This document shows positions 1,404 through 62,553 of a stretch of 64,000 nt of DNA, piece after piece. Source of the DNA: a virus; the IMG/VR virus record IMGVR_UViG_3300045988_095676, positions 26,969-90,968 of that record, one strand, 5' to 3'. The position numbers were made by a program, and so were the translations under genes. Below the pieces are notes generated by a model. It was not told the DNA's origin, made no database searches, and was given only the letters and a program-made list of their open reading frames with translations. The first letter of the stretch is position 1. The number at the start of each line of letters is the position of its first letter.

Positions 1404-2138
1404 ATGAGCATGTTAGGTTTTACATTCATCACAGACAGCAAGCTGTCAATGTACAGGGAGAAAGCTATTAAATCCGAAAATCTTGCAAAAGAAATTGAGG
1501 AAATGCAGGATAAGGCTGATTTTTACAAGGAAAGGCTTTCCGAACTTAAGTCAGATATCGCTTCAAAGGATAAAGAGATTTTATCTATTGGCAAAGATCT
1601 TTCTGAGTCTAAGGAAAAGATTGACGCCTTGAAGGAAAATCAGAAAAAGCTGATAAAAAGCGTCAAGAAGAAAACGGAAGAACTTGATGCGGCCAAGGCT
1701 GATCTTGACAAAGCTAAGTCTGATCTTGATGAGGCTAATTACAAAATCAGTAACTTGGAAGAAAAGAAAAACAGTATATCATTTGAATTAAAAAAGAAAT
1801 CAAATGCATTGATTGAAGCCAGGATCAGAATCGGAGATTTGGAAAACGAGGTTTCGGTTGGGTCCAAAACAATACAAGAGTTAGAATCGAAGCTGAAATT
1901 AATGCAAGTAGAATTAAGAGGCTACCAGATAGGTATAATCGGTAAAGACAAAAACGATTCCGCTGAGCCGGAATTGGATAAAGATGAGGAGTCAGATAAG
2001 GATGTGGCTGAGTCGGAGAAGTCTGATGTTGTTCCTGAGATGGATGTGATTCAGGAAGAAGCCGGTGATATTGTGGAGCCCGAAAACGAAGCTGAACGAG
2101 TAAAAGACACTAAAAAGAAGAAGAAAAAAAAGAAGTAG
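1404..2138 (+). CDS. coiled-coil protein with acidic region and poly-Lys C-terminus
   Basis: ORF track. Heptad-like K/E/L-rich sequence, ends KKKKKKKK. Confidence 0.6.
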   Translation: MSMLGFTFITDSKLSMYREKAIKSENLAKEIEEMQDKADFYKERLSELKSDIASKDKEILSIGKDLSESKEKIDALKENQKKLIKSVKKKTEELDAAKADLDKAKSDLDEANYKISNLEEKKNSISFELKKKSNALIEARIRIGDLENEVSVGSKTIQELESKLKLMQVELRGYQIGIIGKDKNDSAEPELDKDEESDKDVAESEKSDVVPEMDVIQEEAGDIVEPENEAERVKDTKKKKKKKK

Positions 2139-2244
2139 GTATTTTAATCCTTTTTATATTTTAATGTTTGCCATATTATGGGTTAGTACTTAACTTTGCG
2201 TTGAGAGAGTTTTTAGGATAATTATTGGTTAATATTTAGCTGTT

Positions 2245-2276
2245 ATATGCAGGCGTCTGTTAAGGCTCCTGCATAT
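2245..2276 (+). promoter_or_regulatory. conserved-loop hairpin A (terminator-like, followed by TTTT)
   Basis: 9-bp stem atatgcagg/cctgcatat. The 14-nt loop cgtctgttaaggct shares the CTGYKAAGR core with hairpins B, D and F. Confidence 0.6.
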
Positions 2277-2282
2277 TTTTAA

Positions 2283-2355
2283 GGTCCTGTAGCTTAGTGG
2301 TGAAAGCAGGCGGCTCATAACCGCAAGATCGTGGGTTCAAATCCCTCTGGGACCA
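2283..2355 (+). tRNA. tRNA-Met (or Ile2), anticodon CAT
   Basis: Hand-folded cloverleaf: acceptor ggtcctg/tgggacc, anticodon loop ctCATaa, T-loop ttcaaat. No encoded CCA. Confidence 0.8.
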
Positions 2356-2356
2356 C

Positions 2357-2427
2357 TGTCCAATGGTGTAGTGGTAGCACAACAGATTTTGGTTCTGTTA
2401 GCGGAGGTTCGAATCCTCCTTGGATAA
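2357..2427 (+). tRNA. tRNA-Gln, anticodon TTG
   Basis: Acceptor tgtccaa/ttggata, anticodon stem acaga/tctgt with loop ttTTGgt, T-arm ggagg-ttcgaat-cctcc. No encoded CCA. Confidence 0.8.
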
Positions 2428-2497
2428 CGGTACATATTTTGTGTAAAGTGTTAATTATCTCGGTGTTTGCGGTGTGTGAACATAGCAAACATTAAAT

Positions 2498-2569
2498 AGC
2501 CTGGTAGTTAAACGGATATAACAAAAGTTTCCTAAACTTTAGTTCCGGGTTCGACTCCCGGTTGGGCTA
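2498..2569 (+). tRNA. tRNA-Arg, anticodon CCT
   Basis: Anticodon stem aaagt/acttt with loop ttCCTaa, T-arm ccggg-ttcgact-cccgg. The acceptor has several G-U pairs, so the ends are +/-1 nt. Confidence 0.7.
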
Positions 2570-2572
2570 CAT

Positions 2573-2644
2573 GGCTTGTTGGATGAGTGGTTTAGTCAGG
2601 GATCTGCAAAATCTCGTAGGGCGGTTCGATTCCGCCACAAGCCT
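2573..2644 (+). tRNA. tRNA-Cys, anticodon GCA
   Basis: Acceptor ggcttgt/acaagcc, anticodon loop ctGCAaa, T-arm ggcgg-ttcgatt-ccgcc. No encoded CCA. Confidence 0.8.
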
Positions 2645-2660
2645 CTAAAAAAGTAAGACA

Positions 2661-3353
2661 ATGAACTACCCAGAGCAACAAATGCTTAAGATCCTTAATA
2701 GGGATCTGCTAAGTAATCCGATGTATGTTATTAACAATCTCCATATATATGATTGGGAATCTGACTTCTTGGCCATAACAAGATCATTGTACGCTTATGA
2801 AGTAGAGGTCAAGATGTCTAAACAAGATTTCTTTAACGACTTCAAAAAGGATAAAAAACATAAGGTTCTTAAAGACGGCATTATTAAAGTAGGTGGTGTC
2901 ATAAGCTATCCTCCAAACTATTTCTACTACGCCTGTCCGCCTAATATGATTGACGTAAATGAAGTTCCGTCTTATGCCGGGCTGATTTATGTCGATGTTA
3001 GTAAAAATAGGAAGAACGTCGTTAAGGTCGCACCTTTAATTCATAGACAGAAGTTTGATGTAGTGGGTAGGAAACTGGTGGATAAGTTTTACTACAATAT
3101 GCTTACTTGGAAGAAAAGAGCTATTTCAAACGTGTATGCTGACCCAGCCAAGGAAAGAGAGAAAGGCGTGCGTGCCGGGGCTGAGGCTGTGAGGAAGTCG
3201 GCCTGGGATGCGTTCAGGGCGCAGTGCCCGCACATTGCTTTCCCCTATGGAAAAGAATTTCCGATGTGTGACGATCACGAACAAGATCATCCCATGAGAG
3301 ACTGCATACTTCAGTGTGAAAAAGGTGGAATATTTAAAAACAGATTGAAATGA
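2661..3353 (+). CDS. hypothetical protein, possible PD-(D/E)XK-fold nuclease (MmcB-like)
   Basis: ORF track. D...ExK-type pattern (ESDFLAIT...YAYEVEVK) near the N-terminus. The functional call is weak. Confidence 0.45.
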   Translation: MNYPEQQMLKILNRDLLSNPMYVINNLHIYDWESDFLAITRSLYAYEVEVKMSKQDFFNDFKKDKKHKVLKDGIIKVGGVISYPPNYFYYACPPNMIDVNEVPSYAGLIYVDVSKNRKNVVKVAPLIHRQKFDVVGRKLVDKFYYNMLTWKKRAISNVYADPAKEREKGVRAGAEAVRKSAWDAFRAQCPHIAFPYGKEFPMCDDHEQDHPMRDCILQCEKGGIFKNRLK

Positions 3354-6936: not shown

Positions 6937-7858
6937 ATCGGATTTAGATGGCGTTGTATCGGCAGCCATCGCAACCATGTACGAAAACAGTAAAAACAAG
7001 GATGTTGTTTATATCCCGTATTCGTATGAAGATGATGTTAAGAAAGTTGTTGACCAAGTACGTGACTTAGATGTTGTTTATGTTCTTGACGTGTCTTTTG
7101 GAGCCGATTCTAAAACTGTTTTCAAAAAGTGGCTTGATGAAGGGAAGAGCCTGATGTGGATAGATCACCACAAGGGAATTATTGAGGACAGTAAGACATG
7201 GGGGTTCGTAGTTCCAGGGTTGAGGAGGGTCGGTGTCGGTGCGTGCGCTCTGGCTTCGGACCTGCTTATGGGGAAGGTGCCGGCGATCGTCCGATGCCTG
7301 TCAGACTACGATGTGTGGAATAAAGAATCTGGCTTAGGCTGGGATACGGTAGTAGCTGTCCAGTATGCCTTGAGATCAAAAATAAGACTCAATGTATTGA
7401 TTGCATTGTCGTATTTATATGATCACTTTAAAGAAAACATGAAAGACAATGAAATTGATCTTATTTTTTATGATCTTGCTAAAGAAGGACGTGCTATAAT
7501 TAATTACATGGCTTGTAAAAACGAAGATGAGGTAAGTAGGTACTCGTTCGAAGCTTACGTCGACGAGGTTAAGGTTATGGCTATGAATACCGCTGAATTT
7601 AGCTCTAAGGTATTTGATTCTCTTACACCGGACTGGTTAGACGGTAGAAAAATTAAAGCCCTGATGCCATTTTGTATCATGCCATGTGGAAAAGTTAGGT
7701 TCTCTCTTTACGAATGCGTAGAAGACAGCGTAGATTGCTGTGAGGTAAGTAAGAGATTCGGTGGTGGAGGACATGCTGGTGCTGCTGGATTCGTTATAGA
7801 CGTATCAAGTGACCAGTTTAAGGACTTCCTTGAAAGTAAAAAACTTTTATCGAAATGA
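6902..7858 (+). CDS. DHH/DHHA1-family phosphoesterase (NrnA/RecJ-like)
   Basis: Motifs HKSDLDGV, DVSF, WIDHHKG (DHH) and GGGGHAGAAGF (DHHA1 GGGH). Confidence 0.8.
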   Translation: MKVKKTAIVYHKSDLDGVVSAAIATMYENSKNKDVVYIPYSYEDDVKKVVDQVRDLDVVYVLDVSFGADSKTVFKKWLDEGKSLMWIDHHKGIIEDSKTWGFVVPGLRRVGVGACALASDLLMGKVPAIVRCLSDYDVWNKESGLGWDTVVAVQYALRSKIRLNVLIALSYLYDHFKENMKDNEIDLIFYDLAKEGRAIINYMACKNEDEVSRYSFEAYVDEVKVMAMNTAEFSSKVFDSLTPDWLDGRKIKALMPFCIMPCGKVRFSLYECVEDSVDCCEVSKRFGGGGHAGAAGFVIDVSSDQFKDFLESKKLLSK

Positions 7859-38379: not shown

Positions 38380-38658
38380 ATGGGCAGATCAACAGAGTAC
38401 TACAGGACTCATCCAGAAGCCAGGAAGAAAAAGGCTAAAAAGGACAAGGAGATAAATGCCAGACCGGAACAGAAAGCCAAACGCCGGGAGCTTGGTCGTA
38501 AAAACTACGAAACGGACAAGAAGAAGGGCAAGGGCTGGAGGAAAGGCAAGGATTGTTCTCATACCAAGAACGGTCTTAGGTATAAATCAGTAAAAGCTAA
38601 TAGGGGATCCAAGTCGGATACGAAAGGTGACAAAAATGCAAGAGGAGATAGCAAATAG
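38380..38658 (+). CDS. highly basic Lys/Arg-rich protein
   Basis: ORF track. About one residue in three is K or R. Confidence 0.55.
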   Translation: MGRSTEYYRTHPEARKKKAKKDKEINARPEQKAKRRELGRKNYETDKKKGKGWRKGKDCSHTKNGLRYKSVKANRGSKSDTKGDKNARGDSK

Positions 38659-39736
38659 GATAGATATAAGAAGGATATTCAAGACCTCTAAACAAGTTAT
38701 GGAAGAGGCGTATGAGAATATCTTGAAATACAGGCGGGGAGAGCTTATCCCCGCTAAAACCGGATACGATTATATTGATGAGGCTTTGCTTGGAGGTATT
38801 TTCCCTCAGCATGCTATTGCCATAGGAGCCCGGCCATCTGTAGGTAAATCGTATGTGGCCCAAAAGATATTGGAAAATGTGATGAATCCGATGATCAACC
38901 CGCAAGCAGAAGATTATTTTCTTGTTAATTGCGAGTTCGAAATGAATCCTCAAGATCTTCTTCTTCGTAGAATGAGCCAGGATATGAAAAAGCGGGCTCC
39001 TGAAATATTAAGAAGGCAAGATTCTAATACAGTAGAAGAGATGAGGATGTTTGAAATCCTTCAAGGTGAAATCAGAAATAATATAATATACATCGATGCT
39101 CCGTGTACGGTAAAAGAGTTTGAGGCGGCTGTGTATCATATAGCTACCAAACATAAAGACAAACGTCTTATAATATTTAAAGTCGATCATATTGCTTTGA
39201 TAAAAAGAATGGGATTAGATCCTAAGTCGGCTATAGATGATTTGGTGGCGGTTATGAATGAGGCTAAATTAGTATATAAAAACATATTTTTCCTCATCAT
39301 ATCCCAATTCAACAGAGAGATAGAAGGAAGGATAAAAAGTCCACAAGAGCAGCCTCCGCGTCTTTCTGATTTTTACCAATCTGATACACTGGGTCAGTTA
39401 TGTACGTTAATGATAGGTTTGCATAATCCTCGTCGGTACGGGCTGGATAAGTATATGATATTTGGGAAAGACTGGTATCAGACTCTTGATCGGTTTAAAA
39501 CTGAAAACAAAACATCATTCAGAACAGCCGGACTGGTGTTTCATCATATACTGAAAGTAAGGCAGGTTAGCATGGAAGAGCTTACTAACACAATCCACCC
39601 AGAGATTCTGCCAGGACATGGATGGATGTACGGGGAGGGCGGGACGAAGTTCGTGAATCCCAACCAGCCGCCGACGCCGCCCAAGCTCTATACTGTGGAA
39701 GACGTTACGGATAATCAAGAACAGTCAGTATATTAA
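38627..39736 (+). CDS. DnaB-like replicative helicase (RecA-like C-terminal domain only)
   Basis: Walker A GARPSVGKS, Walker B-like IFKVDHIALI, SQFNREIE. No DnaB N-terminal domain. Confidence 0.75.
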   Translation: MTKMQEEIANRIDIRRIFKTSKQVMEEAYENILKYRRGELIPAKTGYDYIDEALLGGIFPQHAIAIGARPSVGKSYVAQKILENVMNPMINPQAEDYFLVNCEFEMNPQDLLLRRMSQDMKKRAPEILRRQDSNTVEEMRMFEILQGEIRNNIIYIDAPCTVKEFEAAVYHIATKHKDKRLIIFKVDHIALIKRMGLDPKSAIDDLVAVMNEAKLVYKNIFFLIISQFNREIEGRIKSPQEQPPRLSDFYQSDTLGQLCTLMIGLHNPRRYGLDKYMIFGKDWYQTLDRFKTENKTSFRTAGLVFHHILKVRQVSMEELTNTIHPEILPGHGWMYGEGGTKFVNPNQPPTPPKLYTVEDVTDNQEQSVY

Positions 39737-39742
39737 AAAGGT

Positions 39743-41008
39743 AATAAAATTGAAATTTCAAATAGTAAAATTGATTGATGAGATTGGTTGAAAAACATAT
39801 TATTAAAGATAACAGATTTGAAGATATTTGCCTCAAATCAGGATTGCTATATAATTATGTCTTGTATAATGCGCGTAAAGGTATCTTCAATAAAGAATAT
39901 CTGAATGAATATGAATTTTCAACCAAACTTTGTAGAGAAAATCAATTTGATTTCAGGAATTTGCCCACTTCTGTTTCTCAACAAGTAGTTGGCCAAGTTT
40001 TTAAAAATATAAAATCATGGATTAGACTCAAGAAGGATTTTGAAAACAATCCTTCCAAATACGATAATTGTTGTCCTCATCTACCTTCGTACAAGAAAGG
40101 CAAGAAACAGAACATGGTTGTGTTCACAACTTCTGCTTGTAGGCTAAAGAAGGATGGTTGTATTCATTTTGTTAAAAATATAATTCAACCAATTAAAACT
40201 GAAATAGGAGATAGTAAATTATGTCAGGTTAGAATCATTCCACAATCTACATGCTATGTGGTTGAAGTAATTTATGAAAAGAAAGAACATAATCTAAGTC
40301 TTGATAAGGATAATGTTCTTTCGATTGATTTAGGATTGAATAATTTATGTTCATGTATCAGCAATGCCGGATTGGTTCCTTTCATTGTAAACGGGCGGAT
40401 TATGAAATCTTTTAATCAGTGGTACAATAAGAGGAAAGCTAAGTTAATGTCTTATGTTGGAGGTAAGGGTACTTCTGAAAGACTTAGACAGCTAAATAAT
40501 TATAGGAATTTTTGGATAGAAGACTACATCCACAAGGTTAGTCGATATATTGTCAATTATTGTATTACTAACAACATTGGTAGTATCGTAATAGGTTTAA
40601 ATAAAGGATGGAAACAAAAGATTAATCTTGGAAAGAAGATTAATCAAAAGTTTGTTGAAATACCTTTTTCAAGACTTATAGACAAAATATCCTATAAATG
40701 TAAGTTGGTAGGTATCAGCTTTCAAATTAATGAAGAATCCTATACATCAAAGGTTGATCATTTAGCTTTTGAGAAATTAGGGAAGCATGATGTTTACTTA
40801 GGCAAAAGAAAGAAACGTGGATTATTCCAAAGCTCAGTTGGAAAGTTGTTAAATGCGGATATCAATGGAGCTATTGGGATAGGTAGAAAAGTATTCGGTG
40901 ATTCATTTGTAAACATGATAATCGATAGTGGGTTTGCGTTTAACCCGATTAGAGTAAACATTTTGTAATATAGATGTGAATTTAATGAATAAAATTTAAA
41001 ATTTTAAT
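39743..41008 (+). mobile_element. solo tnpB insertion (IS200/IS605-family remnant without tnpA)
   Basis: The tnpB gene is bracketed by imperfect AT-rich direct repeats AATAAAATTgAAAtTT (39743-39763) and AATAAAATTtAAAaTT (40988-41008). It is lower in GC than its neighbours, and there is a palindrome ttgaaatttcaa at the left edge. Confidence 0.5.
39778..40968 (+). CDS. tnpB: TnpB-like RNA-guided-nuclease family protein (OrfB), RuvC triad present, zinc finger absent
   Basis: RuvC-I SIDLGLNN, RuvC-II EESYTSK, RuvC-III NADINGAIGI. There are no CxxC pairs between II and III. Confidence 0.8.
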   Translation: MRLVEKHIIKDNRFEDICLKSGLLYNYVLYNARKGIFNKEYLNEYEFSTKLCRENQFDFRNLPTSVSQQVVGQVFKNIKSWIRLKKDFENNPSKYDNCCPHLPSYKKGKKQNMVVFTTSACRLKKDGCIHFVKNIIQPIKTEIGDSKLCQVRIIPQSTCYVVEVIYEKKEHNLSLDKDNVLSIDLGLNNLCSCISNAGLVPFIVNGRIMKSFNQWYNKRKAKLMSYVGGKGTSERLRQLNNYRNFWIEDYIHKVSRYIVNYCITNNIGSIVIGLNKGWKQKINLGKKINQKFVEIPFSRLIDKISYKCKLVGISFQINEESYTSKVDHLAFEKLGKHDVYLGKRKKRGLFQSSVGKLLNADINGAIGIGRKVFGDSFVNMIIDSGFAFNPIRVNIL

Positions 41009-41011
41009 AAC

Positions 41012-41614
41012 GTGAGACTTACAGTAGAAGAAAACGAATACCTGATAAGTAAGTTCCTTTTGGTTCTTACTGAGTTTGCAGGGGATGAAAGAGAGATGTT
41101 TTTAATCAACTCCATACATGATAAGGCGGTGGCGGATATGAATTATCGTCTTCCGTCTTTAATAAGCAGAGAACGTAAAAGACGAGTTATTGAACTCCTT
41201 AAAGAAGGAACCAGAATAATCAAGGACTTTTCCGGCTATGCAGGTGATATGGGTATGATTAACGAATACGATCGCCTAAAGAAAGAAATAGGAACCGTCC
41301 AAGATCAGCTTGGCGACGTAGAAGGTCAACTTCGGGCAGCAGGAGAAGTCATAAAAAAAGAACTTGATATGATTGCTGACCGAATCAAAGAAGATCTTCT
41401 TGACCGAGAGCTGGCTAAGAGTAATGCCGAGGCCGAAAGAAAAGCCAAAGTAGATCCGAGATATGAAGTAGCTTTAGGTGATTACAAGGAGATGCTGGAA
41501 GTGATTTTTACAACCAGAAACAAGTATTCTACGGTAGATTCTGTACATGACGATCTTCGACAGTCGGTATCTACCGGTAGAAATTCGATTATCAAAGAAG
41601 GGTACAACAGTTAA
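41012..41614 (+). CDS. coiled-coil hypothetical protein
   Basis: ORF track (GTG start). Confidence 0.6.
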   Translation: MRLTVEENEYLISKFLLVLTEFAGDEREMFLINSIHDKAVADMNYRLPSLISRERKRRVIELLKEGTRIIKDFSGYAGDMGMINEYDRLKKEIGTVQDQLGDVEGQLRAAGEVIKKELDMIADRIKEDLLDRELAKSNAEAERKAKVDPRYEVALGDYKEMLEVIFTTRNKYSTVDSVHDDLRQSVSTGRNSIIKEGYNS

Positions 41615-41841: not shown

Positions 41842-42555
41842 ATGTACATCAATTTCAGACAACTTGCAGCATCAGACATGACTCCTAATGATCTGGCTAA
41901 TCTTCTTGCTATAAGACAGAAGGATACGGTTATGATCGAAGCCATGCTGGAAAAAGATGCTGGGAGGTATATAGAGCTTGGCCTGGTTGAGAAATTAAAA
42001 TCAGGCGTGATGAGATTGACCAACAAAGGAACGTCTTTTGTGAATTATATAGAGACACCGGAGATGACAGACGAGGTTCTGGAAACGTTGAAGATTATGA
42101 TAGGAATGTACGAATCGTATTCAAAAGACATAGGTGTCAGCAGAAAAGAAGCGGAATCCAGGTTGTGTTGGTTTATGGGTAACACCTCATTCAAGAAAGA
42201 GGTCATACTTCAGGTAACGGAATCTTATATAGCAGAGTCAGGAGATTATACAATGAGCTTATGTAACTTCATATGGAAACCGCCTTCTCAGGCCTTTTCG
42301 GTCCATATGAACCTTAAAAATTCAAAGCTCTTTGACTTAATAGCTGAAAAATTTAAGATCGCTACCGAGCCTTATTTGGAGTCTAAGAAGAATAAGGAAA
42401 TGGATTGGTTGTTTGCCGTATCTAAATTGCCTACGCCGCCGGCTAAAGGCAATCCGGATTATTTGTTTACCGGAAGTTCTGAAACAGACAAAGAGCGATT
42501 GAAAAACATAAAAACGTATTTATTTAACAAAATTAGAAAGCAATGGAAAAAGTAA
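41842..42555 (+). CDS. hypothetical protein
   Basis: ORF track. Confidence 0.65.
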   Translation: MYINFRQLAASDMTPNDLANLLAIRQKDTVMIEAMLEKDAGRYIELGLVEKLKSGVMRLTNKGTSFVNYIETPEMTDEVLETLKIMIGMYESYSKDIGVSRKEAESRLCWFMGNTSFKKEVILQVTESYIAESGDYTMSLCNFIWKPPSQAFSVHMNLKNSKLFDLIAEKFKIATEPYLESKKNKEMDWLFAVSKLPTPPAKGNPDYLFTGSSETDKERLKNIKTYLFNKIRKQWKK

Positions 42556-42794
42556 GAATCAGAAAGATAATAGAGGATATAATTATTACTCAGTTTCTTA
42601 ATTCGGAAATAGATATAGTTCATGAAGAAGATGTGACGTTTAAAGAACTTGGATTAGATTCTATCGATCAAATTGAACTGGAAGTGATGGTGGAACAAAA
42701 ATTCAATATTGTTATTAATGATTATGATATGGAGACCATCAAAGATATGACTGATCTTGTTTACAAAATAATAACAGAAGGATATGGGAAGTGA
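42543..42794 (+). CDS. acyl carrier protein-like
   Basis: 83 aa, acidic. LGLDSIDQIEL matches the phosphopantetheine attachment DSL/DSI motif. Confidence 0.6.
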   Translation: MEKVRIRKIIEDIIITQFLNSEIDIVHEEDVTFKELGLDSIDQIELEVMVEQKFNIVINDYDMETIKDMTDLVYKIITEGYGK

Positions 42795-56130: not shown

Positions 56131-59100
56131 CTATTTGTAACTAACGTCATCGTCTCCTTCCGAATCAGGAGTAGCGCCGATGAAGAACATCATTGACTTG
56201 TTGTTCGTCTGCTGCCACCAATTATAGGCGCGCGCTACGTCTTCCGGCGTCTTGATATTATACCATTGTTTGATAAACGTCTGTTTGGCGAGTTGCCTAA
56301 ATAACTTAGACTCTCCCTTGTATGTACCGGATGTTACTTTATCAAGTGAATAATTCCTAAGATCGGTAAGATCCTTCAGTTTTCGCCCCATAACAAACGG
56401 ATCGTTAATGATATCTACCACGTTAAGCTCCATAATAAACGGCATCTGTGAAGCTATTTCGTTTATGGTTCTGAATCCGACATAGGATCCAAATTGAGTA
56501 AGCCAACTTTCTTCGTTTTCATCATCATCACGCCATCCGGCAAGAAGCATAGATACGGCCTGCATGATAAGGAACGTGCCGGCATAGACACTGAGGCGTT
56601 TGAGATTAGTTTTTTCTACCTCATTCATATTGTCTTTATTTTCGTTCCAGGCATCTATGATGTTTTTCATACCAGACTCGGAAGCCAGGCTAAATGTTTT
56701 GGCTATCATATTCTTTAACGTAATTGACAACCCTTCCTCTTCTTGCATTGTCTGGAAATTGAAGCCACGTCTTTTCCACAGACGTTGAGCTGCCAGCACC
56801 AGCCAGCCTCGGTGGGCGGTCATGAACCTGGCTATCCAGTTGCGCGATGCGGCAGTTCGGTTTTCTTCATTCAAAGATCCGTTACATATCTGCGACAAGC
56901 TACGGACTTGATTCCTGGTTATAGCCATCTGGGTTTCAACTTCCTCAACAGTAACACCCGATCCCGGCTTTACAACCACCTTTCCATCCACGACGTCTAC
57001 CATACTCCATAAAGTACGATCTTTTAATGCGTTCCATTCTCTTTTTATGGTACTCTGTTCTTTATTGCGTTCTTTTTCCATCTTGAAATCTTGGAACGTG
57101 TAGAACCGGCCTTTGTAATAACGAACATTGTCCATAGTAGCAATCATAACCTGCGGATCAAGAGGGTAGTTCAGGATTTCCATAAAAGCATACATAGGCG
57201 AACGCATTAAGGTCCTGGCCGCTCTATTGTATCCGGCACCATACATACGATTTCGGATATTGAATATCCCCATTCTCTCACCTATGACATATAATTTGCT
57301 TTTCCTATCTATGTCTCCGGTTTCTGCTATACAAGATGGCGCAAGACGGGAAAACTCAGCCGATGCGTATTTAAGGGAATCTTTGCTTATATACTGTCCT
57401 ACGGCTGATTCCATGATGAGGTTGATATGGCCTGTCAGGGCGCCGGTAGCTGCCACAAACGGAGACAGTGCCAAGTTCATAACCGACATAAATCTTTCAA
57501 CAGCCATCATAATTCTTGTAAGGTCTACCGTATATCCTCCGATGTTCACCGTAAGTTTTTTGGTGTTCATCCTAATGCCATAATAATGATCGTTGAAGAA
57601 GTCCCTGAACATCTGATATGCTTGGGTTGCTTCAGCCTTTTTACCACCTTCAAATTGTTTATTTAGTAACATCTGCTCCAGTCCTTGGGCAAGCTCTATA
57701 GACTTCTGCTTTTCGTTGTATAACGATGATTGCATCATAAGCATCGAATAAGAGTAGCCAAAATCGTGAGATACATCATCTTGGTTCTCCAATTCATATA
57801 TGTAGTATTTAGGTATAGACCTAAGCCTGTCTTCTGGATCATACACTTCTCCTTGCCTGGTCTTACCATATAGAGAATCGTCTACTCTGTCCAGGCACAG
57901 ATCTGATACAAAATTACGAACCGTATTTTTGAAGTTAATACCCAATCCTTCTACACGTTCTATATCTTGTTTGGATATCTGTGGAATAGCATACAGGTTC
58001 GGGCTCTGCTCTTTGTATAGATCAAGGGATTGTCTTTTTATTTCCTTGAGTTTTTGAATCATATTCCACTGCTCTACGTTTTTAGTAGCAACCTCATTAC
58101 CGTCAGCATCATACTTGATACCAAAGTCATTGAAATACGATTCGTCACGATACAGGCTTTTCTTAGGCATTCGATGACCATACCCATGATCTTTTACATA
58201 ATCAGGATTACGACCGCTATTTTCGGCTTCAGATTCAGCCACCCATGCCCTTGCAGGGTCGAAAGACAAGTACGATATGTCCATGCCATAATCTTGGGTG
58301 GATGTACCGTTTTGTACGTCCTTAACCATTTGCGCCACATCTATCTCACCTCGACCGATTTTGTCGATCATAGCTGCATATCCGGTAGGCGCCATGCGTT
58401 TATAGTACGAAAAAACCTGGCTTCTGGCAAATTCATTAACAATAGCATTAGCTTCTTCTACGCCCTCTTCTCTTGTATTATTTAAAAATAAGCTGGCCAT
58501 CTTAGCATTAACAGCATTCCTGAAATCTCTACCGTCTAATTCTTTGCTTATACCAAGCTTTTCTGACAGGTAGTTGGTTTCAGATACGGTAAACAGATAT
58601 CGGTTATCAGCAGCCTTAAACAGCTTATCCCTTAAAGCCTGAATCCTTTTTGCTTTCTTCGCCGTAGTATGACGTTGTACGAACTTCCATTCCACTTCCT
58701 TGGAGTCAGCAAGAGCATTTAAATAAGACTGATTTACTTCGTTTTCAGCCTTACTGCTTTTAGTAAGGTACTTATCAATATCTTCAAGACCCACCATCTT
58801 AGCATAATCTATCAAAATAGCGTAATCGGCTTCAATAGCTTCAGATGCGGCCCTAAAAGCATCTCTTTCGGATGAGGTAAATGTCGCTTCGTTAATTTCT
58901 CCGATATCAGCCACATCGCGATTGTTTCCGATTATTTCCTTGATAATAGCCTTATTTTTTTCTATATCTTTCACAATAGAATCCACGTCAGTCGCATCTC
59001 TATCACTTGTCGTAGAACTAATGATATCATGCGCCATTTTAAGATACGAAGCCTTGTTATTTGATTCGGTACGTGCCGACTGTTCTGATTCTACATCATT

Positions 59101-62100
59101 CCAAAACCGATCGTTGAATGACAGGTGACCTCCCAACATAAGTGTCTTCAGCGCAGCTTCTCCTCCAGACTCGCTCTGAATCGTTCTTAATTTTTGCAAA
59201 AACGATTCTGATACGGCATTAGTGGCATTATTTGATTCCTTTCTCCAAACTTCATTTATAGCTTGTATTTCTTTGGCCATCTTAAGTTGGTCGCCGGTTT
59301 TTTCCACTCTCCTGGTTCCTACATATATGTATTCTGAAGCTGCTTCCTTACGTTGTTTACGAAGCAGTCCTTCTTCTTCGTAATTGCTGCTTTTAAAATA
59401 GGCAACCTCATCAAAATTACCACCGCTATCAATAAAAGGCTGCCTCAATATCCGTTTTTGCCGGGATAGGGCATTAAGATATTCTTTGGTTGTTTGAGAA
59501 ACCGGATACCCTAATTCTTCTTCAGCCTTTTTGTATATGGATTCCATTCTTGTGGCATAACTTTCGCTAAATTCCAATTCCGAATTTTCAGCATCCCACT
59601 TTTCCATCTGCTCTGTATAGATCTTTTCCTGCTCGATGGTAAAAATATCGGTATTAACCCTATCAGACGATGGTTTGAATTTAGCGTTTTCAGTAACCGT
59701 ATTTCCATCCTTGTCAACTACTTCTCTTTTAAATACGTAATTACGGTTATTGTCAACCACATCACCAATTTCTTCTTCTGATATCTCTATGTTCATGGCA
59801 GTCGCAAACGCTCGCATCTGCGCCAGCTTCTTATTACGATCGTATTTAGCCATATCAAGAGCACTACGAAGGTAATTAGAAGTTTTGCCGTCTACTTTCT
59901 GAAGCAGTTTTTCAAATTCAGATTTGTTAAAACCATGCTTTTTCGCATATGCCAGGAAATCGGATATGGCGGGCTGGGCATTCACCATCGCATTGTAATT
60001 GTCTTTGGCAATCATAGCTCCAAGAGCGTTATTGAACGGACTGGAAGAATGCTCTAATATACCGAACCACCTACTTATCCAAGAAACATCGTGTTGAACC
60101 TTGTCGAAAAATTCTTTTACTCTCTTTACCTTATCTGCCGGCACATGAAGTTCGTTCATTAACTTATCAAGCAACGTACTTTCATCAAGGTCTTGTACTG
60201 ATTTAATATCAGACTGAATACCATTGATGTCGGCAATGACGGTATTGATCCTATTTGTATAATCCTGCTTTTCACGTTCATCAAATTCGGTACTTCTGTT
60301 ACGGATATATCCTCGAAGATCGTTCATGATCGGAAGAACCTGATTGTTGATAATATCTACGTTCTTTCGATCATTGGTATTGAAGTGAAGCTTACCGTCT
60401 TTGGTATCACCATGAAGGATGGTGTTCACCACATTGCTTAAGTATCTGACCTGAGCTTCGGCTGTAGAGATCATGCTGTTCATGGCAGCCGCCATCTCAT
60501 TCTTGTCTATTTCGGTCTCTACCTTATTTATCTTATCTTCTATGGTCTTAAGCTGAGCAAGGGTCATAGACGTAGTTACAGCCCTATCAGAGCTTATCTG
60601 ACGTAAGTCTCTTAATGTTTTCCTTAATGCCAGGATCTTAGACTCAAGAAACTTGTTCTTGTTCATAGAAGAAAGGGAGTATAATGTAAAGTCATTATCC
60701 TTTAACAGAGAGGTGTCAAATCCTTTATCTATGTCAGTAATGGCAAGATCACGAATGTTTTTAATAACGTTATTCAAATCTTGTCTTTGGGTTGATAAAG
60801 CTGATTTAAGCCAGCTTACGATTCCAGAGAAAAGCTGCCGGACGCGCCCCAGGAAGGAGGTGGGCTCTACCGGCGCCTGTGCTGTGCCGGTCTGCATCTC
60901 CCTGGCGAGGATCTTTCCAAGAATTTCTCTCCTAACAGCATTATCAAGCTCAGCTCCTTCATATACTTTACCGTATGTATTATAATACTGACCTGCATAT
61001 TGGTTCCACTCTTCCGTACCTTCCACATCTTGCAGAACAGCCTCAACAGCATTCTGATCTCTGTATGCCTCTACAAGGAAGTGGGCTGTTTCTTCTACTA
61101 AATCAGATAAAGTAGCATCTTCACCAACTGCTATTACGTTATTGGCAATATCCGCCAATGCCTTAGCAGAAGGTTCGTGCCCGTATTTGGTTTGGTACTT
61201 CTCTATATAATCGGTCATACCTATGACACTAACGCCAAGAGTTTTCAGTATCTCGACAATAGAATTTCGTTGGTCACGTTCCTGCCTGCTATAATCTGAT
61301 ACGATCTTAGCTTTAGTATCAGCATAAAGATCGTTGTCTTCTAATATGAATGAAACTACAAGCGCATCAAAATGATCGTACTTGGCGTCCAATTCATTGT
61401 ATCTTCCTGACTTGAGATCGTTCTTTATCTGTTCCCTACTAATCCTTTCCGTTCCTCCGGTGGCGAGTCTCATAGTTACCTTACTGTTATCCAACGAGCT
61501 TATGGTTATCATACCTTGGTCGTTCATGGAAACATCGGAACCAAAATGATTACGGAGCTCGGTGTAGGATAAGGCTGAATTGAAAAGTCTAATTTGTCCT
61601 GTATGACCTTCTCCTGTAAGATAATAGCTTCTTGTTTCAGGATCGAATATCTTAGATCCGGACAAAAGACCTTTCTTTATAAGGTAGTTAATTATACCAC
61701 CTTTTGTTGATAAAGAAGTAGAAGCAGAAGCGGTCATGACCGGTATAAAAGATTTGGGATTATTAAGAACATACTTTCCAGCCTTGTAAGTAATGTCTGC
61801 CACGCCATCCACGGCAGATTCTTGAACGGTGCCGGATAAGAATCCTATTCTAATATCATTCCCGCCAGAGCGAAGAGCTTCTCCGTAATCTTCAAATAAT
61901 TGATTACGATCATTCATGAAAAACAAACGAGGCTCTCCGGTCTGATACGTTACACCCACAGGATTAGAATCTGTCTGTGGTAACTCCTCTGGGCTAAATA
62001 TCTTAAGACCGTCTTTTATAACCATATAATTAACACCCTTATCCTGTACCATAGATACGGGAGTAAAGTCCGAAGATATAGCATCTTGTAGATACTGCCC

Positions 62101-62553
62101 GGCGTCTATTCCCGGTCCTTCCGGTACGGAAATACTTGACGGGACCATAGCATCTACCAACATAATATTATCACCCAGATCTTGGCTGTAGAATCCAAAG
62201 CCTGATTCTTGGATTTCATAAGGTGCATCTGATTTTGACACAAGAACAGGGTTACTCATCTTAGAAGCCTTATCCAGCACCCTTTCTCTATAGGCTTCCG
62301 GAATAAGATCGATGTTGGATTTCACCTTATTGTAGGCCGGTTTATTAACAGGTACATTCCTTCTCCAGTCGCCAAAAGCCTTCAAGAACTTATTAGAAAA
62401 TACGGTTTTAAAAACAGTAGTAGCCCGTTCCCTGTTCTCCATAAGAGGAATAGATGCTATCTTATCAAACAACATAGACCTGTCCCCTGATCTGGTAGAG
62501 ACAGAAACAACTTTCTTTTTATTATCTCTTTTAATAATACACGTTGATGTCAT
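56131..62553 (-). CDS. giant (2140 aa) virion-associated protein of unknown function
   Basis: Single uninterrupted ORF. Long coiled-coil-like central part, hydrophobic segments near the C-terminus (ALSPFVAATGALTG, TFLIMQAVSMLLAG). Located in the structural block next to fibre-like genes. Confidence 0.75.
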   Translation of the reverse strand: MTSTCIIKRDNKKKVVSVSTRSGDRSMLFDKIASIPLMENRERATTVFKTVFSNKFLKAFGDWRRNVPVNKPAYNKVKSNIDLIPEAYRERVLDKASKMSNPVLVSKSDAPYEIQESGFGFYSQDLGDNIMLVDAMVPSSISVPEGPGIDAGQYLQDAISSDFTPVSMVQDKGVNYMVIKDGLKIFSPEELPQTDSNPVGVTYQTGEPRLFFMNDRNQLFEDYGEALRSGGNDIRIGFLSGTVQESAVDGVADITYKAGKYVLNNPKSFIPVMTASASTSLSTKGGIINYLIKKGLLSGSKIFDPETRSYYLTGEGHTGQIRLFNSALSYTELRNHFGSDVSMNDQGMITISSLDNSKVTMRLATGGTERISREQIKNDLKSGRYNELDAKYDHFDALVVSFILEDNDLYADTKAKIVSDYSRQERDQRNSIVEILKTLGVSVIGMTDYIEKYQTKYGHEPSAKALADIANNVIAVGEDATLSDLVEETAHFLVEAYRDQNAVEAVLQDVEGTEEWNQYAGQYYNTYGKVYEGAELDNAVRREILGKILAREMQTGTAQAPVEPTSFLGRVRQLFSGIVSWLKSALSTQRQDLNNVIKNIRDLAITDIDKGFDTSLLKDNDFTLYSLSSMNKNKFLESKILALRKTLRDLRQISSDRAVTTSMTLAQLKTIEDKINKVETEIDKNEMAAAMNSMISTAEAQVRYLSNVVNTILHGDTKDGKLHFNTNDRKNVDIINNQVLPIMNDLRGYIRNRSTEFDEREKQDYTNRINTVIADINGIQSDIKSVQDLDESTLLDKLMNELHVPADKVKRVKEFFDKVQHDVSWISRWFGILEHSSSPFNNALGAMIAKDNYNAMVNAQPAISDFLAYAKKHGFNKSEFEKLLQKVDGKTSNYLRSALDMAKYDRNKKLAQMRAFATAMNIEISEEEIGDVVDNNRNYVFKREVVDKDGNTVTENAKFKPSSDRVNTDIFTIEQEKIYTEQMEKWDAENSELEFSESYATRMESIYKKAEEELGYPVSQTTKEYLNALSRQKRILRQPFIDSGGNFDEVAYFKSSNYEEEGLLRKQRKEAASEYIYVGTRRVEKTGDQLKMAKEIQAINEVWRKESNNATNAVSESFLQKLRTIQSESGGEAALKTLMLGGHLSFNDRFWNDVESEQSARTESNNKASYLKMAHDIISSTTSDRDATDVDSIVKDIEKNKAIIKEIIGNNRDVADIGEINEATFTSSERDAFRAASEAIEADYAILIDYAKMVGLEDIDKYLTKSSKAENEVNQSYLNALADSKEVEWKFVQRHTTAKKAKRIQALRDKLFKAADNRYLFTVSETNYLSEKLGISKELDGRDFRNAVNAKMASLFLNNTREEGVEEANAIVNEFARSQVFSYYKRMAPTGYAAMIDKIGRGEIDVAQMVKDVQNGTSTQDYGMDISYLSFDPARAWVAESEAENSGRNPDYVKDHGYGHRMPKKSLYRDESYFNDFGIKYDADGNEVATKNVEQWNMIQKLKEIKRQSLDLYKEQSPNLYAIPQISKQDIERVEGLGINFKNTVRNFVSDLCLDRVDDSLYGKTRQGEVYDPEDRLRSIPKYYIYELENQDDVSHDFGYSYSMLMMQSSLYNEKQKSIELAQGLEQMLLNKQFEGGKKAEATQAYQMFRDFFNDHYYGIRMNTKKLTVNIGGYTVDLTRIMMAVERFMSVMNLALSPFVAATGALTGHINLIMESAVGQYISKDSLKYASAEFSRLAPSCIAETGDIDRKSKLYVIGERMGIFNIRNRMYGAGYNRAARTLMRSPMYAFMEILNYPLDPQVMIATMDNVRYYKGRFYTFQDFKMEKERNKEQSTIKREWNALKDRTLWSMVDVVDGKVVVKPGSGVTVEEVETQMAITRNQVRSLSQICNGSLNEENRTAASRNWIARFMTAHRGWLVLAAQRLWKRRGFNFQTMQEEEGLSITLKNMIAKTFSLASESGMKNIIDAWNENKDNMNEVEKTNLKRLSVYAGTFLIMQAVSMLLAGWRDDDENEESWLTQFGSYVGFRTINEIASQMPFIMELNVVDIINDPFVMGRKLKDLTDLRNYSLDKVTSGTYKGESKLFRQLAKQTFIKQWYNIKTPEDVARAYNWWQQTNNKSMMFFIGATPDSEGDDDVSYK

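Follow-up and report, generated by a model that had tools for sequence, protein, structure and literature searches.

Start-codon insertion by a transposase-less TnpB element lineage of crAss-like phages

TnpB proteins of IS200/IS605 elements, for example that of ISDra2 (structures 8H1J and 8EXA), are RNA-guided RuvC nucleases. These elements insert without duplication on the 3' side of a short motif, their TAM, and the guide of a TnpB element is the DNA just 3' of its right end, a geometry taken from ISXfa1 and IS607 elements (PMC10711439). In the IS607 family (ISXfa1, PMC10711439; IS607 in Helicobacter phages), TnpB and a right-end guide RNA accompany conservative insertion at a short fixed motif, GG, with no target duplication. 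The fixed bases of the right junction belong to the RNA scaffold, and solo tnpB copies are common. Meers et al. (bioRxiv 10.1101/2023.03.14.532601) proposed a homing model in which cleavage of the empty site on the sister chromosome by the nuclease promotes copying of the element. IStrons, which join a group I intron, IS605 or IS607 and TnpB (bioRxiv 10.1101/2023.11.20.567912), sit in genes without destroying them by virtue of RNA splicing, and their 3' end has a double task, for the guide RNA and for expression of the host gene.

Free-standing homing endonuclease genes of T4-like phages (Seg, Mob; PMC13565253, PMC2988022) are nuclease genes wedged between conserved genes, present in some close relatives and absent from others. 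They are expected to spread during co-infection by cleavage and recombinational repair, recognize their targets through the protein, and lie in islands without discrete boundaries. In TnpBs with a rearranged RuvC-II (RIIr-5, PMC10691335; 'Ealt' TnpBs, pro-Fanzor and Fanzor2, PMC10711439; structure 9B0L), Gly occupies the canonical Glu position, a compensating Glu lies just before YTS, and RuvC-III reads NADxN; as described, these proteins keep a C4 zinc finger (the Ealt search pattern requires CxxC). Lastly, phage-borne TnpB-derived repressors are known (PMC10705468), and those of the TldR type have an inactivated RuvC and are immobile.

The window analyzed here, a 64,000-nt stretch of phage DNA, carries a 1.3-kb element whose only cargo is tnpB (Table 1). 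As with the Seg and Mob genes, the nuclease gene is wedged between conserved genes, here a helicase gene, whose counterpart in the phage csAssE-Sib is annotated as a DnaB-like replicative helicase, and a hypothetical gene. The preliminary description of this locus had read the low GC content of the tnpB region as a sign of insertion. The segment from 39740 to 41014 is a real insertion: its GC content is 0.29-0.32 against 0.35-0.44 outside, it is absent from csAssE-Sib, a 95%-identical phage whose flanks at this site are 94-97% identical to the window, and 106 further contigs carry the empty version of the site. The gaps on the two sides of tnpB, earlier given as about 40 nt, measure 41 nt and 43 nt. 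Comparison of relatives with and without the insertion, which had been proposed as a check, found both and moved the ends from 39743 and 41008 to about 39740 and 41014. Two AT-rich 21-mers (39743-39763 and 40988-41008) had been taken for flanking direct repeats; they do resemble each other (17/21 positions) and do not flank anything, as both lie inside the element. A target-site duplication was rejected for the same reason, one 21-mer belonging to the remnant of the left end (LE) and the other to the tail of the right end (RE), and since clean filled/empty pairs show no duplication. The 17/21 similarity may be at chance level in AT-rich DNA.

Table 1. Coordinates of the TnpB element, its junctions and its neighbors in the window
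Feature	Position	Strand	Remarks
DnaB-like helicase, upstream neighbor	38627..39736	+	PF03796 DnaB_C, 8.5e-17; outside the element, context
Left junction with native phage DNA	after TAAAAA 39734-39739	+	TAA is the helicase stop codon
Whole TnpB element	about 39740 to 41014	+	1.27 kb; shortened left end, intact tnpB, right end
Shortened left end (LE), doubles as tnpB 5' leader	39740..39777	+	Homology to empty alleles stops here
tnpB coding sequence	39778..40968	+	396 aa; ATG at 39778; TTG at 39775
Right end (RE) and putative omega/reRNA scaffold	40888..41014	+	Last 26 tnpB codons plus 43-nt tail GAATTTAATGAATAAAATTTAAAATTTTAATAACGTG
GGGTT-N7-AACCC inverted repeat	40930..40946	+	Highly conserved sequence
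Terminal GTG of element, start codon of downstream gene	41012..41014	+	ATG in empty alleles
Downstream phage gene, start codon swapped	41012..41614	+	200 aa; hypothetical; from the ORF list
Predicted guide segment, first codons of downstream gene (AGACTTACAGTAGAAGAAAA)	41015..41034	+	By analogy with TnpB elements
Empty target site, ATG of a 2140-aa gene (56131-62553)	62551..62553	-	Sister element there in related phages

The identification of a solo TnpB with a full RuvC triad is borne out by matches above cut-off to NCBIfam NF040570 guided_TnpB (3.4e-41, 141.8 bits; cut-off 100), Pfam OrfB_IS605 PF01385 (61.1 bits; cut-off 30.5) and Pfam Cas12f1-like_TNB PF07282 (32.1 bits; cut-off 26.3), and by the motifs SIDLG (D184), EESYTS (E320) and NADINGA (D361). 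We compared the protein with 108 representative relatives, 36-50% identical, whose sources are cyanobacteria, Chloroflexota, archaea, Bacillota and phages. The catalytic residues are conserved in nearly all of them (D184, 108/108; E320, 107/108; D361, 108/108), the canonical RuvC-II Glu position (G273 in the window protein) is Gly in 108/108, and E320 is the alternative Glu. By motif, this combination of Gly and alternative Glu fits the RuvC-II-rearranged branch of PMC10691335, as does the NADxN form of RuvC-III in the subfamily of the window protein; the likeness to RIIr-5 and Ealt proteins is one of motif and published description. Unlike those proteins as described, this subfamily has lost the zinc finger. 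The preliminary description had correctly noted the lack of CxxC...CxxC and had treated it as a special trait, which it is not: the motif is missing between E320 and D361 in the window protein and in every one of the 108 relatives (0-3 Cys in this stretch), so its loss is no peculiarity of the window copy. Nor does a missing finger exclude membership among TnpBs, since such loss is already documented for some large TnpB branches as a whole (PMC10691335).

An AlphaFold2 model (pLDDT 91, pTM 0.85), made along the lines proposed earlier, places a Cys-free beta-hairpin (residues 343-351) in the zinc-finger region. Foldseek matches to this model include AsCas12f 8J12 (E = 5e-16), ISFba1 TnpB 8IAZ, ISDra2 TnpB 8H1J and Fanzor2 9B0L, with TM about 0.6. 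The predicted fold is shared with IS200/IS605 TnpBs, from which the window protein differs in its Gly and alternative Glu at RuvC-II and in its missing finger. The median dN/dS of tnpB is 0.078, and the window ORF differs from sister copies almost only at synonymous sites; by this measure tnpB is under strong purifying selection.

We found more than 7,000 homologues, of which the best 120 are 82-100% identical and come from contigs as long as 158 kb. A more distant TnpB, 48% identical, is encoded by the cultivable Bacteroides phage C3_41T2LP. The element family is very common in crAss-like phages, and its protein variants in public metagenomes number in the thousands. Relatives that are 78-100% identical are spread over 16 distinct insertion sites in two phage lineages, Epsilon crAss-like (about 150 kb) and cr1_1-like (about 100 kb). 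This lineage has been found only in crAss-like gut phages, a group that ranks very high in abundance among human gut viruses, and two copies occur together in at least two phage genomes (contig 161830, with L074 and L106; contig 170227, with L048 and L282).

Comparison of these sites revealed that the lineage inserts inside ATG start codons of phage genes. At all 16 sites the 3' end of the element reads ...ARTRACGTG, and its GTG opens the downstream phage gene, with ORFs from 64 to >818 aa. A long ORF follows the terminal GTG at 16/16 sites, against a baseline of 0.22 for random GTGs (chance P about 3e-11). Conversely, an ATG stands exactly at the GTG position in 11/11 types of empty allele (7 sites), all targets being N-A-T-G, and in 4 of the 6 empty alleles checked no earlier start is possible, an in-frame stop lying 5-9 codons before this ATG. 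For instance, the window junction reads ...TAATAACGTG followed by AGACTTACAG, and the empty alleles read ...AAGAACCATG followed by AGACTAACAG; the N-terminus of the downstream protein, MRLTVEENEYL, is identical in the csAssE-Sib orthologue read from its ATG (L001 4176). Three filled/empty pairs are clean (the sites of L047/L071, L060 and L041): zero bases are lost or duplicated, and the insertion point falls between the AT and the G of the start codon with an ambiguity of 1-2 nt. Because the element end ...ACGTG donates a GTG start, the interrupted gene retains its full reading frame. The coincidence of the element's last three bases with the next gene's start codon, at every site occupied, had escaped the preliminary description.

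We found no earlier description of this start-codon rule in the literature. Insertion at start codons only, together with a donated start codon, would be a new way for a mobile element to survive in a gene-dense genome. Like IS607-family elements, the lineage inserts conservatively at a short fixed motif without target duplication, but the motif is (A)TG instead of GG, insertions are confined to start codons, and the target gene takes its start codon from the element end. The outcome resembles that of IStrons, in that the element sits in a gene without destroying it and its 3' end would serve both a guide RNA and host-gene expression, and start-codon donation is comparable in spirit to IStron splicing; here, however, harm is avoided at the level of DNA and translation rather than RNA. 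We also considered that the element is itself an IStron or contains a group I intron, and rejected this: its left end, at most 60 nt, leaves no room for an intron, Rfam detects none, and the junctions break the group I rules, by which the 5' exon ends in U and the intron in G. In annotation, a gene that follows such an element has a GTG start, and the element itself is easily mistaken for an ordinary "transposase".

The preliminary description had also reported that no Y1 transposase accompanies tnpB, and this holds well beyond the locus: the window and 290 related phage loci, together 2.4 Mb, yielded neither Y1 nor serine transposases. The serine-TnpA search used a profile built from 6 TnpAs of relatives, and the Y1 search a query sequence. 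Among 80 bacterial and archaeal relatives, a co-oriented serine recombinase lies upstream in 9/80 and a Y1 transposase in 2/80. In its solo tnpB and in the serine recombinase of its nearest partnered relatives, the lineage resembles the IS607 family, and it differs in having no TnpA in cis or elsewhere in the phage DNA examined. Compared with IS200/IS605 elements, it lacks a Y1 transposase, and we recognized no similar subterminal hairpin pair at its left and right ends. Excised-circle or tandem junctions, with the RE joined to the LE (circle form ...TAACGTGGTTGAAT...), had 0 matches in metagenome contigs.

These results bear on a conventional explanation, in which this is an ordinary non-autonomous element of the IS607 or IS605 type. 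Its transposase would target (A)TG, insertions at other ATG or TG positions would be lethal in a gene-dense genome, and TnpB would only restore the donor site after excision, with no homing between phages. We regard this as rather unlikely. The serine and Y1 transposases adjoining some relatives and the nucleotide-precise element ends speak for it, yet there is no transposase in 2.4 Mb of phage DNA and no bacterial relative above 54% identity was found. Selection alone should also leave intergenic ATG or TG insertions, and instead 16/16 are at start codons, while the invariant CGTG end, one base off the target, looks designed to distinguish self from target. The junction dinucleotides give mixed evidence. 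The right junctions and targets have TG in all cases, without duplication; the left junction has TG in L047, L022 and L062, so that TG flanks both sides in 3/6, like the crossover dinucleotide of IS607, and TA in L060, L056 and L041, unlike that family. A last point in favor of an ordinary element is the persistence of matching empty alleles (about 57%) at the L060 site. Here we find 50 filled and 65 empty alleles that are undifferentiated across a 1-kb flank, the nearest filled/empty pairs differing at 1-4 nt. Judged from these flanks, the pattern is one of recent gain and loss of the element.

The left end is less regular than the right. At the window site its boundary is set by csAssE-Sib and the 106 other empty alleles. 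The LE segment GGTAAT..ATTGAAATTTCAAATAGTAAAATTGATTG is common to the window copy and to L020, a longer version at another site, relative to which the window LE has two deletions; the left-end sequence expected in an autonomous copy is GTTGAATAAATTGTTTATTTCAT. Compared with a clean insertion, native sequence of about 14 nt (AAATAAGAACCAT) and the first LE bases are missing from the window junction. Such unclean left junctions occur in 3/9 cases (window, L018 and L019), in which 13-18 nt of native sequence and the LE tip are missing, and they are unexpected under simple cut-and-paste. We considered a general loss of about 14 nt at the target and rejected it, since such loss is restricted to these three and the L047, L060 and L041 pairs are clean. 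We likewise rejected the rule that the element always starts right after the native ATG. This holds for the L047-type variant, which has no leader and whose tnpB uses the ATG of the target gene for translation; elsewhere, 30-60 nt 5' of tnpB are common to different sites.

Lacking its LE tip, the window copy may spread by homing only. Alternatively, it could be an immobilized passenger, kept because the downstream gene depends on its GTG and on read-through transcription. The shortened LE and the lost native sequence agree with this idea, as does the finding that the 7 filled alleles at the window site are 99-100% identical and form a single lineage. An internally deleted derivative at another site (L091) likewise retains the right end and its GTG. 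The ORF of the window copy, however, is intact with a dN/dS of 0.08, and a left end is not needed for homing. We consider the passenger explanation improbable.

We next examined the right end, from which any guide RNA would be expressed. The earlier expectation was that its scaffold must lie almost entirely in the 3' coding end and its guide read into the neighboring gene; extended by the 43-nt tail, this placement is right, and the pattern of conservation supports a functional overlap: synonymous diversity in codons 371-396 is 0.12 versus 0.30 overall, and the 43-nt tail is near-invariant (39 unique variants at 16 sites, all ending ARTRACGTG). An A-U stem of 6-7 bp (TAAAATT/AATTTTA) is kept despite a variable loop, with A-to-G changes compatible with G.U pairs. 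The GGGTT-N7-AACCC hairpin proposed as part of the scaffold exists, 2 nt from where it had been placed, and as a structure it finds no support, since there are no compensatory changes and the variants GGATT, GAGTT and ACCCC each break a pair. The predicted fold of 40830-41014 is not significantly more stable than that of shuffled sequence (z = -0.78), RNAalifold detected no consensus structure in 58 right ends, and an Rfam scan of 38-43 kb returned one chance match only, with no guide RNA and no intron. A sigma-70 promoter scan was uninformative and gave fewer matches than in shuffled sequence; the hosts are probably Bacteroidota, which use promoter motifs other than the sigma-70 type scanned. 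Based on its conservation, we infer that the last ~125 nt of the element are a guide-RNA scaffold. If so, the fixed bases of the right junction would belong to the scaffold as in the IS607 family, and the guide would lie 3' of the right end and the TAM 5' of the insertion as in IS200/IS605 elements.

We favor, with moderate confidence, a model in which a transposase-less TnpB element inserts in start codons, replaces them with GTG, and homes between co-infecting phages under RNA guidance; its guide RNA, TAM and mobilizing transposase are all deduced. The guide would be the first 16-20 nt of the downstream gene, read from the RE scaffold RNA. TnpB and this RNA would recognize the uninterrupted allele, an ATG-containing TAM plus the first codons, when an element-free phage co-infects the cell. 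Repair of the break by recombination with the element-bearing genome would copy the element in, or the competitor would be eliminated. The carrier would be immune because its own junction reads CGTG and not NATG, GTG being a start codon but, on this proposal, no TAM. The AT-rich tail probably doubles as the region where translation of the displaced gene begins. To reach new sites, the element would need a transposase in trans, either serine (IS607-type) or Y1 (IS605-type). The ATG TAM is deduced from insertion sites only, and a 3-nt TAM would be shorter than the known TAMs of characterized TnpBs.

Homing or inter-phage competition, as suggested in the preliminary description, is on this inference still the best reading. 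As in the model of Meers et al., the nuclease would cut the empty site and promote copying of the element, but the proposed target is a co-infecting phage genome instead of a sister chromosome. The expected spread by cleavage and recombinational repair during co-infection, and the presence or absence of the gene in close relatives, are shared with the Seg and Mob genes; in contrast to these, target recognition would be by RNA, and the element's ends are nucleotide-precise and identical at 16 sites. A more radical version, possible but doubtful in our view, is a self-sufficient 'start-codon drive' with an ATG TAM and a first-codon guide, which would encode no transposase and spread between co-infecting phages purely through RNA-guided cleavage followed by recombinational repair, the GTG handed to the gene making it harmless and hard to delete. 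If this were true, the RE would be guide-RNA scaffold, recombination end and translation-initiation region at once.

At the window site, guide position 6 is T in 7/7 filled alleles and A (77) or G (29) in the 106 empty ones. Since no empty allele there fully matches the predicted guide, the window copy may have no current target, a result that also speaks for the passenger explanation. The L060 site retains empty alleles with a full match at high frequency, so that homing, if it occurs, is not sweeping. The many filled and empty alleles on near-identical backgrounds make a natural test system for TnpB as an RNA-guided homing endonuclease between viruses, and a zinc-finger-free TnpB of compact size, with ATG as a possible 3-nt TAM, may find application.

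The preliminary description had offered a further role, that of a domesticated RNA-guided regulator. Like the TldR repressors, the protein, together with the right-end RNA, would bind where the downstream gene, or a host gene, begins and tune expression without cutting. The predicted guide does cover the 5' end of the neighboring gene and there is the precedent of repressors carried by phages, but we consider this role very improbable given the intact D184/E320/D361 triad, the low dN/dS, the 16 sites occupied, and the filled and empty alleles on near-identical flanks. The window protein differs from TldR-type repressors in its conserved triad and in its mobility, to which the recent presence/absence polymorphism also attests. 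In addition, the putative TAM is absent from the carrier's own junction.

The window also contains an empty target site for the same lineage. In L002-L009 and L018, a sister element with 85% identity occupies the counterpart of the start codon at 62551-62553. On the minus strand the window reads ...ttttactATG followed by acatcaacgtg, versus ...taataacGTG followed by gcatcaacgtg in L004.

Our main result is a rule that holds across sites: the element is inserted in start codons and provides a GTG in their place. At the window locus, comparison with csAssE-Sib (OR575929; locus L001), an Epsilon crAss-like phage (PMC11054128), gives 94-97% identity except for a segment of about 1.27 kb that is absent from csAssE-Sib. 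In a scan of viral contigs, the site is empty in 106 alleles, every one with ATG, and filled in 7, and comparing the two allele types places the element at about 39740-41014. The solo tnpB gene had been proposed to be an insertion, and these empty alleles, together with csAssE-Sib, confirm this and supply its ends. GC content is 0.29-0.32 across tnpB vs 0.35-0.44 in its surroundings, the flanking intergenic gaps are 41 and 43 nt, and no second TnpB was found in the 64-kb window.

Coordinates of genes and element copies (window positions, or positions in the related locus whose handle is given)
Feature	Position	Strand	Remarks
tnpB	39778-40968	+	ORF, 396 aa
DnaB-like helicase gene	38627-39736	+	Upstream neighbor of tnpB
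Hypothetical gene, 200 aa	Start GTG at 41012	+	Downstream neighbor of tnpB
Acyl-carrier-protein-like ORF	42543-42794		
Flotillin-family protein gene, 566 aa	43310-45010		Long Ala/Glu/Lys-rich repeat region
2140-aa gene	56131-62553	-	ATG at 62551-62553
Further solo TnpB gene	L002 1874-3013		379 or 407 aa
Further solo TnpB gene	L007 1878-3017		379 or 407 aa
Further solo TnpB gene	L004 1494-2717	-	379 or 407 aa
Further solo TnpB gene	L373 1501-2724		379 or 407 aa
Decayed element copy	L091, about 7530-7633	-	Internal deletion
Decayed element copy	L371 (MT835500) 1501-2730		tnpB frameshifted

Homologs of the window TnpB number more than 7,000 at E < 1e-5; the best 120 of these reach 82-100% identity, and their contigs, of up to 158 kb, have names such as "Caudoviricetes sp.". 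Across 80 viral and several hundred further loci, we find 16 distinct insertion sites of the element family, carried by Epsilon crAss-like phages (~150 kb) and by a second phage group of ~100 kb related to crAss-like cr1_1 and cr55_1. Some carriers have two copies per genome (contigs 161830 and 170227). At all 16 sites the 3' end of the element reads ...AATTTTARTRACGTG, and downstream of the terminal GTG an ORF of 64 to >818 aa continues in the same frame. Given that 22% of window GTGs precede an equally long open frame, the chance of 16/16 is about 3e-11. Seven sites yielded empty alleles, and all 11 variants carry ATG precisely at the GTG of the filled alleles; in four of the six empty alleles checked, this ATG is the earliest possible start, 5-9 codons past an in-frame stop. 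For instance, the ATG of the 2140-aa gene in the window is the empty target site of a sister element (85% identical) that fills exactly this ATG in ~150-kb phages (L002-L009, L018).

Related Epsilon crAss-like phages also carry at least two further, unrelated solo TnpB genes (379 and 407 aa); over the same few kb, some genomes have them and others do not. The 407-aa gene is equipped with a promoter-like box of its own and is followed by a 215-nt spacer, and therefore falls outside the start-codon rule. Of the two decayed copies, L091 retains the last ~47 nt with GTG and L371 ends in AACATAG in place of AACGTG. The latter is the only copy of the right-end sequence in the GenBank phage collection, and it is unannotated. 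Full-text searches that paired TnpB with start codons, with phage homing or with crAss-like phages, or that covered TnpBs encoded by phages, gave no description of start-codon targeting or donation; the csAssE-Sib paper mentions TnpB "transposases" in passing only (PMC11054128). The nuclease belongs to the TnpB family and its catalytic rearrangement is already on record; what is new is the undescribed insertion logic.

Empty and filled alleles (a slash marks the element boundary)
Site	Empty	Filled
Window	...GTATTAAAAAAAATAAGAACCATG/AGACTAACAG	...TATATTAAAAA/GGTAAT...tnpB...TTTTAATAACGTG/AGACTTACAG
L060	GGGGATTAT/GAGAGAAAAG (77 contigs)	GGGGATTAT/AGTTGAATGAATT...TAGTAACGT/GAGAGAAAAG (61 contigs)
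L041	CTTTATATTAT/GCAATTAG	CTTTATATTAT/ATGGTATGC...AACGT/GCAATTAG
L047/L071	AAAATAATAT/GAAATACGC	AAAATAATAT/GAAATTGGTA...AACGT/GAAATACGC

In three clean filled/empty pairs (sites L060, L041 and L047/L071), no bases are lost and none duplicated, and the insertion point falls within the start codon, ambiguous by 1-2 nt (T or TG). In the L047 variant, which has no leader, tnpB (M-K-L-V...) takes as its start the ATG that belongs to the target gene, one base past the upstream gene's stop codon. Other variants have a left end of 30-60 nt, with motifs (TTTG ... TAnnTTTG) that resemble a Bacteroidetes promoter. Full-length left ends (L022, L056, L060, L062; ~60 nt upstream of tnpB) open with RTT GAA TRA, a stop two codons past the native ATG, so that the leftover ATG can open no more than a 3-codon mini-ORF; this ATG is changed to ATA in L060, L056 and L041. 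The left junctions of the window, L018 and L019 each lack 13-18 nt of native sequence and the left-end tip, and at L019 a direct repeat of 11-12 nt (native GTTGAAAATTT vs left-end GTTGAATAAATT) forms the ends of the deletion. All three are probably secondary deletions. Beside the insertion, the helicase C-terminus is ~7-8 codons shorter in the window (39700-39736) than in csAssE-Sib (L001 4110-4161), and its repetitive GAACAAGAACAAGAGACAAAGGAAGAACAG stretch is cut down to GAACAG. In csAssE-Sib, the downstream-gene ortholog WOZ57350.1 (L001 4023-4778) has an annotated start 51 codons upstream of the element-replaced ATG, in a region overlapping the helicase gene; given that element carriers keep only the portion from the replaced ATG on, the deposited start is probably over-extended.

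The element carries tnpB alone. Searches of the window and of 290 phage loci, together 2.4 Mb, found neither an IS607-type serine recombinase (profile) nor a Y1 transposase (sequence query). Among bacterial and archaeal relatives (35-54% identity), an upstream co-oriented serine recombinase occurs in 9 of 80 and a Y1 transposase in 2 of 80; both recombinases checked against Pfam, out of the nine, match the Resolvase domain, and the Helicobacter phage relatives are of IS607 type. The TG common to target and right junction resembles an IS607 crossover dinucleotide (GG in ISXfa1; PMC10711439), whereas the left junction is TA in three of six cases, and the junction sequences are equally compatible with an IS605-type "insert 3' of the TAM" reading. 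Metagenome contigs yielded no circle junction. A passive, transposase-dependent insertion sequence whose positions are filtered by selection is a possible but rather unlikely account of these sites.

The window TnpB matches NCBIfam NF040570, "RNA-guided endonuclease TnpB family" (3.4e-41, above cut-off), and Pfam OrfB_IS605 and Cas12f1-like_TNB. In 108 representatives from a library-wide HMMER search (36-50% identity to the window TnpB), D184, E320 and D361 are fully or almost fully conserved, and the catalytic triad recognized in the window is thus conserved among homologs. All 108 have Gly at the canonical RuvC-II glutamate position and none has a CxxC...CxxC zinc finger, so both traits are family-wide: the preliminary description was right that the finger is missing, a feature that it treated as unusual but that is not peculiar to this copy. 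Most representatives keep one vestigial Cys (YTSKCS...GKRxKRGLF...NAD). The Gly with an alternative Glu fits the RuvC-II-rearranged TnpBs of RIIr-5 (Altae-Tran et al., PMC10691335) and the "Ealt" enzymes (Yoon et al., PMC10711439); zinc-finger loss has been reported in some large TnpB branches (Altae-Tran et al., PMC10691335). Structure prediction had been suggested to see what replaces the finger, and in an AlphaFold2 model (41 sequences; pLDDT 91, pTM 0.85) a Cys-free beta-hairpin (residues 343-351) occupies the zinc-ribbon place. The model matches AsCas12f, ISFba1 TnpB, ISDra2 TnpB and mimivirus Fanzor2; a sequence search found no solved structure of a close relative. Copies of tnpB from different sites have a median dN/dS of 0.078, and the gene is under strong purifying selection. 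That TnpB acts as a regulator is very improbable.

At the right end, synonymous diversity is 0.12 in codons 371-396 vs 0.30 gene-wide, and the 43-nt tail is near-invariant (39 unique variants, 16 sites). An A-U stem of 6-7 bp (TAAAATT / AATTTTA) right before RTRACGTG is retained despite loop variation (TAA, AAT, AAATG, GAATA...), and A-to-G changes in it would yield G.U pairs. The right end has no Rfam match, folds no better than shuffled sequence and gave nothing with RNAalifold. The GGGTT/AACCC hairpin put forward earlier as an RNA feature is present (40930-46), but compensatory changes are absent. Based on family knowledge and this sequence constraint, we infer a guide RNA at the right end. 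Such an RNA would carry as its guide the downstream gene's first 16-20 nt, and TnpB would cut co-infecting phages at uninterrupted alleles (NATG plus those codons). The element would then be copied in by recombination with the carrier genome, or the competitor would be lost, and the carrier would be immune because its own junction is CGTG. The AT-rich tail would also serve translation of the displaced gene.

Synonymous diversity dips again (0.15-0.20 vs 0.30 overall) around RuvC-I (codons 171-220, about 40288-40437), a position too distant from the right end for a guide-RNA scaffold. A 7-bp inverted repeat (GATTTGA-N11-TCAAATC, 39815-39839) in the 5' coding part of tnpB is kept in sister copies as TTTGAGG/CCTCAAA and resembles a minus-strand terminator in a scan. 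It may be a left-end recognition hairpin or a product of coding constraint. The acyl-carrier-protein-like and flotillin-family genes, so annotated in csAssE-Sib, are unusual phage cargo unrelated to the element.

Filled (50) and empty (65) alleles of the L060 site are undifferentiated across 1 kb of flank, with no column frequency difference >0.5, and the most similar filled/empty pairs are separated by differences at 1-4 positions. The element has thus come or gone recently on many backgrounds. At the window site, the seven filled alleles form a single near-clonal lineage. That this copy is an immobilized passenger is improbable. In the predicted guide (41015-41034; loci L374-L487), position 6, a Leu codon's third base, is occupied by T in every filled allele and by A (77) or G (29) in the 106 empty ones, a difference that could be a drive-resistance signature or just a lineage marker.
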